A stretch of 64,000 bases of DNA, taken from positions 1,120,001-1,184,000 of the forward strand of contig CM000153.2 in assembly GCA_000004695.1 (NCBI GenBank). The letters run 5' to 3'. This document shows, piece by piece, positions 4,187 through 5,447 of this stretch. The notes below the pieces were generated by a model, which searched no databases, was not told where the DNA came from, and saw only the letters and a list, made by a program, of their open reading frames with translations. A program made the position numbers and the translations under genes. Position 1 is the stretch's first letter. Every line of letters begins with the position of its first letter. Origin of the DNA: Dictyostelium discoideum (lineage: Eukaryota).

Positions 4187-5447
<1,261 letters not shown>

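Follow-up and report, generated by a model that had tools for sequence, protein, structure and literature searches.

The adenylate kinase gene adkA of Dictyostelium discoideum, which we take to be DDB_G0283805, carries between two introns a segment of only 17 nucleotides, tag/TTCCACAAGCTGAAAAA/gtaaca, and the question raised by this locus is whether so short a segment is a genuine coding exon and, if it is, how it came to stand apart from its neighbours. The window analysed here is a stretch of 64,000 nucleotides of D. discoideum nuclear DNA, to which all positions refer. The existence of a micro-exon at this place had been proposed from the letters alone, and it is borne out by the sequence, by transcript contigs and by the annotated protein. 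The segment is almost certainly exon 2 of the four exons of adkA, a constitutive coding micro-exon flanked by GT-AG introns (121 nt on its 5' side, 167 nt on its 3' side), and it probably owes its size to the insertion of an intron beside an older one.

Gene model of adkA and its surroundings

When read and spliced by script, adkA lies on the minus strand and consists of four exons (352+17+168+294 nt) that make up a coding sequence of 831 nt, encoding 276 amino acids and ending in TAA (Table 1). All six splice sites conform to GT..AG, and the G+C content of the exons is 31-35% versus 7-11% in the introns, the window as a whole being at about 20%. Exon 1 ends in GGT TTC CCA AGA ACT G before gtatgt, and its leftover G together with the 17 nt reads GTT CCA CAA GCT GAA AAA, that is VPQAEK, after which exon 3 is taken up in phase 0 with CTT GAT AAA ATG (LDKM). 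The micro-exon stands in the minus-strand context attatgtag/TTCCACAAGCTGAAAAA/gtaacatt and, being 17 nt long with AG directly 5' and GT directly 3', belongs to the class of micro-exons of 30 nt or less. The original prediction was right about the phase-1 end of exon 1, the peptide (V)PQAEK, the restored frame and the length of 276 amino acids, and it gave the start of exon 3 correctly as 4775; its coordinates for the micro-exon, 4960-4944, are one base off, position 4960 being taken up by the final G of the intron 1 acceptor, and the exon 1 of 343 nt ending at 5090 that it described has to be replaced by one of 352 nt ending at 5081.

Table 1. Features of adkA in the window (minus strand), with the nested AG inside the micro-exon
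Feature	Position (strand)	Description	Evidence
Exon 1	5432-5081 (-)	352 nt; ATG at 5432-5430; phase-1 end, ..GFPRT + G	Transcript contigs, 100% identical, 5533/5523/5519-5081
Intron 1	5080-4960 (-)	121 nt; gtatgt...tag; 9.9% GC; phase 1, T117 / V118	
Exon 2 (micro-exon)	4959-4943 (-)	TTCCACAAGCTGAAAAA; 17 nt; completes V118 and encodes P119-Q120-A121-E122-K123; 35% GC	Three transcript contigs; annotated protein; gapless alignment with human AK2 and E. coli Adk
Nested AG within the micro-exon	4952-4951 (-)	CAAG/CTGAAAAA; as acceptor would give an 8-nt exon, an mRNA 9 nt shorter and in-frame loss of V-P-Q	
Intron 2	4942-4776 (-)	167 nt; gtaaca...tag; 11.4% GC; phase 0, K123 / L124	
Exon 3	4775-4608 (-)	168 nt; LDKM...MIDD	Transcript contigs
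Intron 3	4607-4470 (-)	138 nt; gtaggt...aag; 7.2% GC; phase 0, D179 / I180	
Exon 4, coding part	4469-4176 (-)	294 nt; ITGEPL...AAEIL; TAA at 4178-4176	Transcript contigs, running on to about 4139

The promoter region and all three introns contain T and A homopolymer runs of 20-45 nt (at 5540-5690, 4780-4830 and 4470-4560). Neighbouring open reading frames lie on the plus strand at 1919-2344 and 6533-7306, one of which looks MIP18/DUF59-like by eye, and scans of the window for tRNA genes and for Rfam families gave no matches. Gene order near adkA varies among the species examined: upstream of it, D. purpureum and Tieghemostelium lacteum have an E2F/DP gene, whereas D. dimigraforme and D. cf. 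discoideum have a gene of the PBP family downstream.

The micro-exon in transcripts and in the protein

The open reading frame is uninterrupted on three assembled contigs of 967, 959 and 920 nt (from runs SRR24091725, SRR17156089 and SRR17156088, respectively); because these contigs lack all three introns and include untranslated regions, the runs behind them are taken to be RNA-derived. A BLAST search of the contigs against the window returned four collinear blocks only, all at 100% identity (about 5533-5081, 4960/4959-4943, 4775-4608 and 4469 to about 4139), and the junction CCAAGAACTG-TTCCACAAGCTGAAAAA-CTTGATAAAATG occurs in all three of them. The junctions that had been put forward as a check on the exon are therefore carried, once corrected to 5081-4959 and 4943-4775, by three intron-less contigs of presumed RNA origin, and the direct joining of exon 1 to exon 3 at 4775, named at the same time as the contrary outcome, is absent from each of them, these being assembled contigs and not read counts.

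The comparison with the annotated gene that had also been called for was made at the protein level, and here the spliced product of 276 amino acids agrees at every position with the adenylate kinase of D. discoideum AX4 (XP_638872.1, EAL65517.1, UniRef100_Q54QJ9; KAD2_DICDI). Since the annotated protein is identical and VPQAEK has no other source in the interval between exons 1 and 3, the reference model must use these 17 bases; the micro-exon is already a part of that model, and it is a known, ordinary constitutive exon.

The product contains the Pfam domains ADK (PF00406; 208.5 bits, cut-off 26.8) and ADK_lid (PF05191; 57.5 bits, cut-off 26.6), both above the gathering cut-off, and it aligns with human mitochondrial AK2 without gaps over residues 21-240 (E = 2.8e-85), GFPRTVPQAE lying opposite GFPRTVRQAE. 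The P-loop GPPGSGKGT (residues 35-43) and GFPRTVPQAE (residues 113-122) are in register with solved enzymes. Judged by its sequence, the adkA product is an adenylate kinase of the long-form AK2/Adk1 type, and an identity of 50-60% to characterised enzymes suggests that it would interconvert ATP plus AMP and two ADP. In a BLASTP comparison, R116 and Q120 correspond to R88 and Q92 of E. coli Adk, in a register that agrees with the match to 1ake. The Q92Y mutant of the E. coli enzyme loses its activity and binds AMP more weakly (PMC10160949). As Q120 is the counterpart of this Gln, which lies in the AMP site, the micro-exon contributes to the substrate-binding core and does not specify a dispensable loop; its residues follow directly on the arginine motif GFPRT.

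That the 17-mer might be a chance match, its residues being supplied from elsewhere in the mRNA, or that the locus might be a pseudogene, was addressed by shuffling the 305-nt interval between exons 1 and 3 in 10000 dinucleotide-preserving permutations. Of these, 6737 (67%) contain a stop-free AG..GT exon of suitable phase and length class, which lends the idea of coincidence its one point of support, and restoration of the frame is by itself not significant; it is the encoded peptide that is decisive. A six-codon exon of the form xxQAEx turns up in none of the 10000 shuffles, and AG, V-x-Q-A-E-K and GT would be expected analytically about 2e-9 times in 305 nt of the same composition. The real interval offers just two frame-restoring candidates, the micro-exon itself and an 8-nt form nested inside it (AEK), so that the search for an alternative exon encoding these residues, which would have refuted the proposal, yielded nothing beyond this nested form. 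Together with the complete identity in three transcript contigs, the identical annotated protein, and conservation of the exon in D. purpureum with one synonymous change, the shuffles rule out both chance and decay of the gene as explanations, to which we assign a negligible probability. G+C content does not single out the micro-exon, as the 17-mers at its acceptor end (starting at 4964 or 4963) tie with a G/C-rich island in intron 2 at 8/17 G+C.

A further question is whether splicing of the exon is uniform. When the micro-exon is omitted in silico, the frame shifts, as 17 nt do not make up whole codons, and the product becomes ...GFPRTA followed by stops two codons on. A role as a regulated cassette is rejected in view of this loss of frame and of the lack of a skipped isoform in the three contigs; and since skipping would bring a frameshift and early stops, the exon has to be present in every functional mRNA and is taken to be constitutive. 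It could still be imagined that some transcripts use the nested AG (Table 1), giving an isoform without V-P-Q, or that the exon is skipped in order to down-regulate the gene through frameshift and decay. The nested AG is the sole other frame-preserving candidate in the interval and is found in all species examined, where the Gln-Ala codons CAA GCx make it unavoidable. Its use as an acceptor is not seen in the three contigs, all of which use 4959, although assembled contigs reveal the dominant isoform only, and occasional splicing at the inner AG, or skipping coupled to nonsense-mediated decay, could escape them. The short form would also remove the conserved Pro and the Gln of the AMP site, and skipping leads to stops two codons later. 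Moreover, the nested AG lies 9 nt 3' of the first AG, which follows a long T-rich tract, and the first AG after such a tract is normally the one chosen as acceptor. Alternative splicing of either kind is thus regarded as very improbable, and the micro-exon is best viewed as constitutive.

With regard to how so small an exon is recognised, both flanking introns are short and about 90% A+T, and probably are identified by intron definition. As would be expected in a short-intron genome, each of the two would be recognised individually, across the intron, and the small size of the micro-exon would then matter little. The motif TATTAAC is found 54 nt upstream of the acceptor of intron 1 (5019-5013, minus strand) and 48 nt upstream of that of intron 3 (4523-4517, minus strand); it is a putative branch-site-like motif near the yeast consensus TACTAAC, and a perfect TACTAAC stands at the corresponding place in intron 1 of D. 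cf. discoideum. A similar motif was not found in intron 2. That intron, otherwise about 89% A+T, contains the G/C island GGGGGACCGAAATT at about 4821-4842 (minus strand), between a run of A and a run of more than 40 T, which is partly conserved in D. cf. discoideum as GTGATCGAAATT and may lie near the branch point.

Age of the introns flanking the micro-exon

The exon structure of adkA was followed across ten genomes by threading orthologous annotated proteins onto their genomic loci with GT..AG introns only (GC donors being allowed in addition for Capsaspora and Nasonia), and a unique solution was obtained in each case (Table 2). As an exon of its own the micro-exon is conserved but lineage-restricted, being found in four Dictyostelium species only. 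In the fused cases the upstream exon ends precisely at ...QAEK/LD. The T-V intron is missing from T. lacteum, Heterostelium album, Cavenderia fasciculata, Acytostelium subglobosum, Capsaspora and Nasonia, and in all six the codons of the micro-exon form part of the upstream exon.

Table 2. Exon lengths of adkA and its orthologues in ten genomes
Genome	Exons (nt)	Separate 17-nt exon
D. discoideum (window)	352/17/168/294	Yes
D. dimigraforme	352/17/168/294	Yes
D. firmibasis	352/17/168/294	Yes
D. purpureum	328 (partial)/17/471	Yes, TTCCACAAGCCGAAAAA, one synonymous change
Tieghemostelium lacteum	378/168/285	No, joined to exon 1
Heterostelium album	378/450	No, joined to exon 1
Cavenderia fasciculata	369/465	No, joined to exon 1
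Acytostelium subglobosum	387/456	No, joined to exon 1
Capsaspora	153/46/191/168/240	No
Nasonia	105/237/168/240	No

The other two introns have a different history. Intron 2 (QAEK/LD) is kept in all dictyostelids examined as well as in Capsaspora and Nasonia, and the introns at QAEK/LD and DD/ITGEPL, both in phase 0, together with the 168-nt exon between them, are common to D. discoideum and to the AK2 genes of Capsaspora and Nasonia, which lack the T-V intron and hence the micro-exon. Because these positions are exactly shared, introns 2 and 3 predate the split between Amoebozoa and Holozoa. The 168-nt exon is also present in T. lacteum, and intron 3, which Capsaspora, Nasonia, T. lacteum and D. 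discoideum possess but D. purpureum, H. album, C. fasciculata and A. subglobosum lack, has the distribution of an ancient intron which was lost repeatedly.

Since intron 1 is confined to four species while intron 2 is kept in all those sampled, a single gain of intron 1 suggests itself. The most likely origin of the micro-exon, on comparative grounds, would accordingly be by gain of this intron on the branch that gave rise to D. discoideum, D. firmibasis, D. dimigraforme and D. purpureum, a choice between gain and loss that is one of parsimony over ten genomes, eight of them from dictyostelids and two, as the only outgroups, from holozoans. In this scenario the ancient phase-0 intron after QAEK was in place first, and a phase-1 intron would then have been inserted 17 nt upstream of it. 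There is a good probability that the birth of the micro-exon can be dated in this way to the stem of D. discoideum and D. purpureum, where an exon of 369 nt would have been divided into 352 and 17 nt, the outcome being tolerated through intron definition of short introns. The tandem-duplication signature (AGGT) was looked for by eye at the ends of intron 1 and was not found there.

The converse reading, that the micro-exon is ancient, with intron 1 already present in the dictyostelid ancestor or earlier and lost independently elsewhere, is unlikely, though it has the general record of the genus on its side: in Dictyostelium, 441 and 202 precise intron losses have been counted versus 98 putative gains, and the authors warn that apparent gains may be misidentified losses (PMC4683709). 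In addition, intron 3 of the same gene was clearly lost several times. However, neither the two holozoan outgroups nor any of the four dictyostelids sampled beyond the D. discoideum-D. purpureum set has intron 1, and an ancient origin would require at least three clean losses of intron 1, with intron 2, only 17 nt away, spared each time. [quoted passage not shown] The supplements of that study do not mention adkA. The probable origin of the micro-exon by lineage-specific insertion of an intron beside an ancient one is the only point here that is new, and mildly so; literature searches on Dictyostelium adkA and on micro-exons of D. discoideum returned nothing specific.

Annotation and comparison with other systems

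The original prediction had further held that exons of this kind are easily missed by gene finders. One draft genome of D. cf. discoideum (GCA_054859235.1) offers a weak illustration: adkA is broken there inside intron 1, within a very long run of T, and falls on two contigs (the stretches next to the break being L010:1853-2019 and L011:1-194). Homopolymer runs such as those seen around adkA in the window are the kind of sequence that broke this assembly. Contig L010 ends 167 nt past exon 1, and its partial model of 117 amino acids ends in ...GFPRT; contig L011 begins 14 nt before the micro-exon (L011:15-31, atgtag/TTCCACAAGCTGAAAAA/gtaaca), and its partial model of 153 amino acids starts at LDKM. 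The micro-exon is missing from both models, and was thus dropped where the exon before it lay on another contig. Its omission is a small illustration and no evidence of a general problem, and in D. discoideum itself the exon was not overlooked, as the reference model includes it.

Beyond quality control the matter is of little consequence. A functional adenylate kinase depends on the exon, and the reference annotation has it already. It does provide a clean test case for gene finders, one recent draft annotation dropping it where the gene is split across contigs, and the comparison of ten genomes makes a tidy case of a micro-exon probably formed by intron insertion next to an ancient intron that all of them have kept, which bears on the origin and tolerance of tiny exons in short-intron genomes.

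Among known systems, the closest is the annotated adkA of AX4 itself (Q54QJ9), the product of which is the same residue for residue, micro-exon included, a likeness known at the protein level. The long-form, lid-bearing enzymes human AK2 and yeast Adk1 (PDB 2c9y and 1aky) have GFPRTV-QAE in common with it, in addition to the gapless alignment with human AK2; in contrast to them, the dictyostelid adenylate kinases carry an additional C-terminal tail of about 35-40 amino acids. This extension beyond the AK2 fold, at 4176-4300 of the window (codons 240-276, approximately), contains a motif S-[LF]-H-F-P that is conserved in all seven species compared.

As for micro-exons in general, the cassette micro-exons of animal neurons are 3-27 nt long, SRRM4-dependent and regulated (PMC7935315), and nothing but the size class is common to them and to the exon of adkA, which, unlike them, is not a multiple of three and for which the three contigs contain no skipped transcript. 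More is shared with the constitutive micro-exons known from coding sequences in plants and other eukaryotes, which measure at most 15-51 nt and are often mis-annotated (PMC8831610). The exon of adkA resembles these in its tiny size, its location in a conserved domain, its canonical splice sites, its retention among relatives and the fact that annotation pipelines can drop it; it differs in that they are deeply conserved, whereas the micro-exon of adkA is limited to one genus-level lineage and its reference annotation is right.
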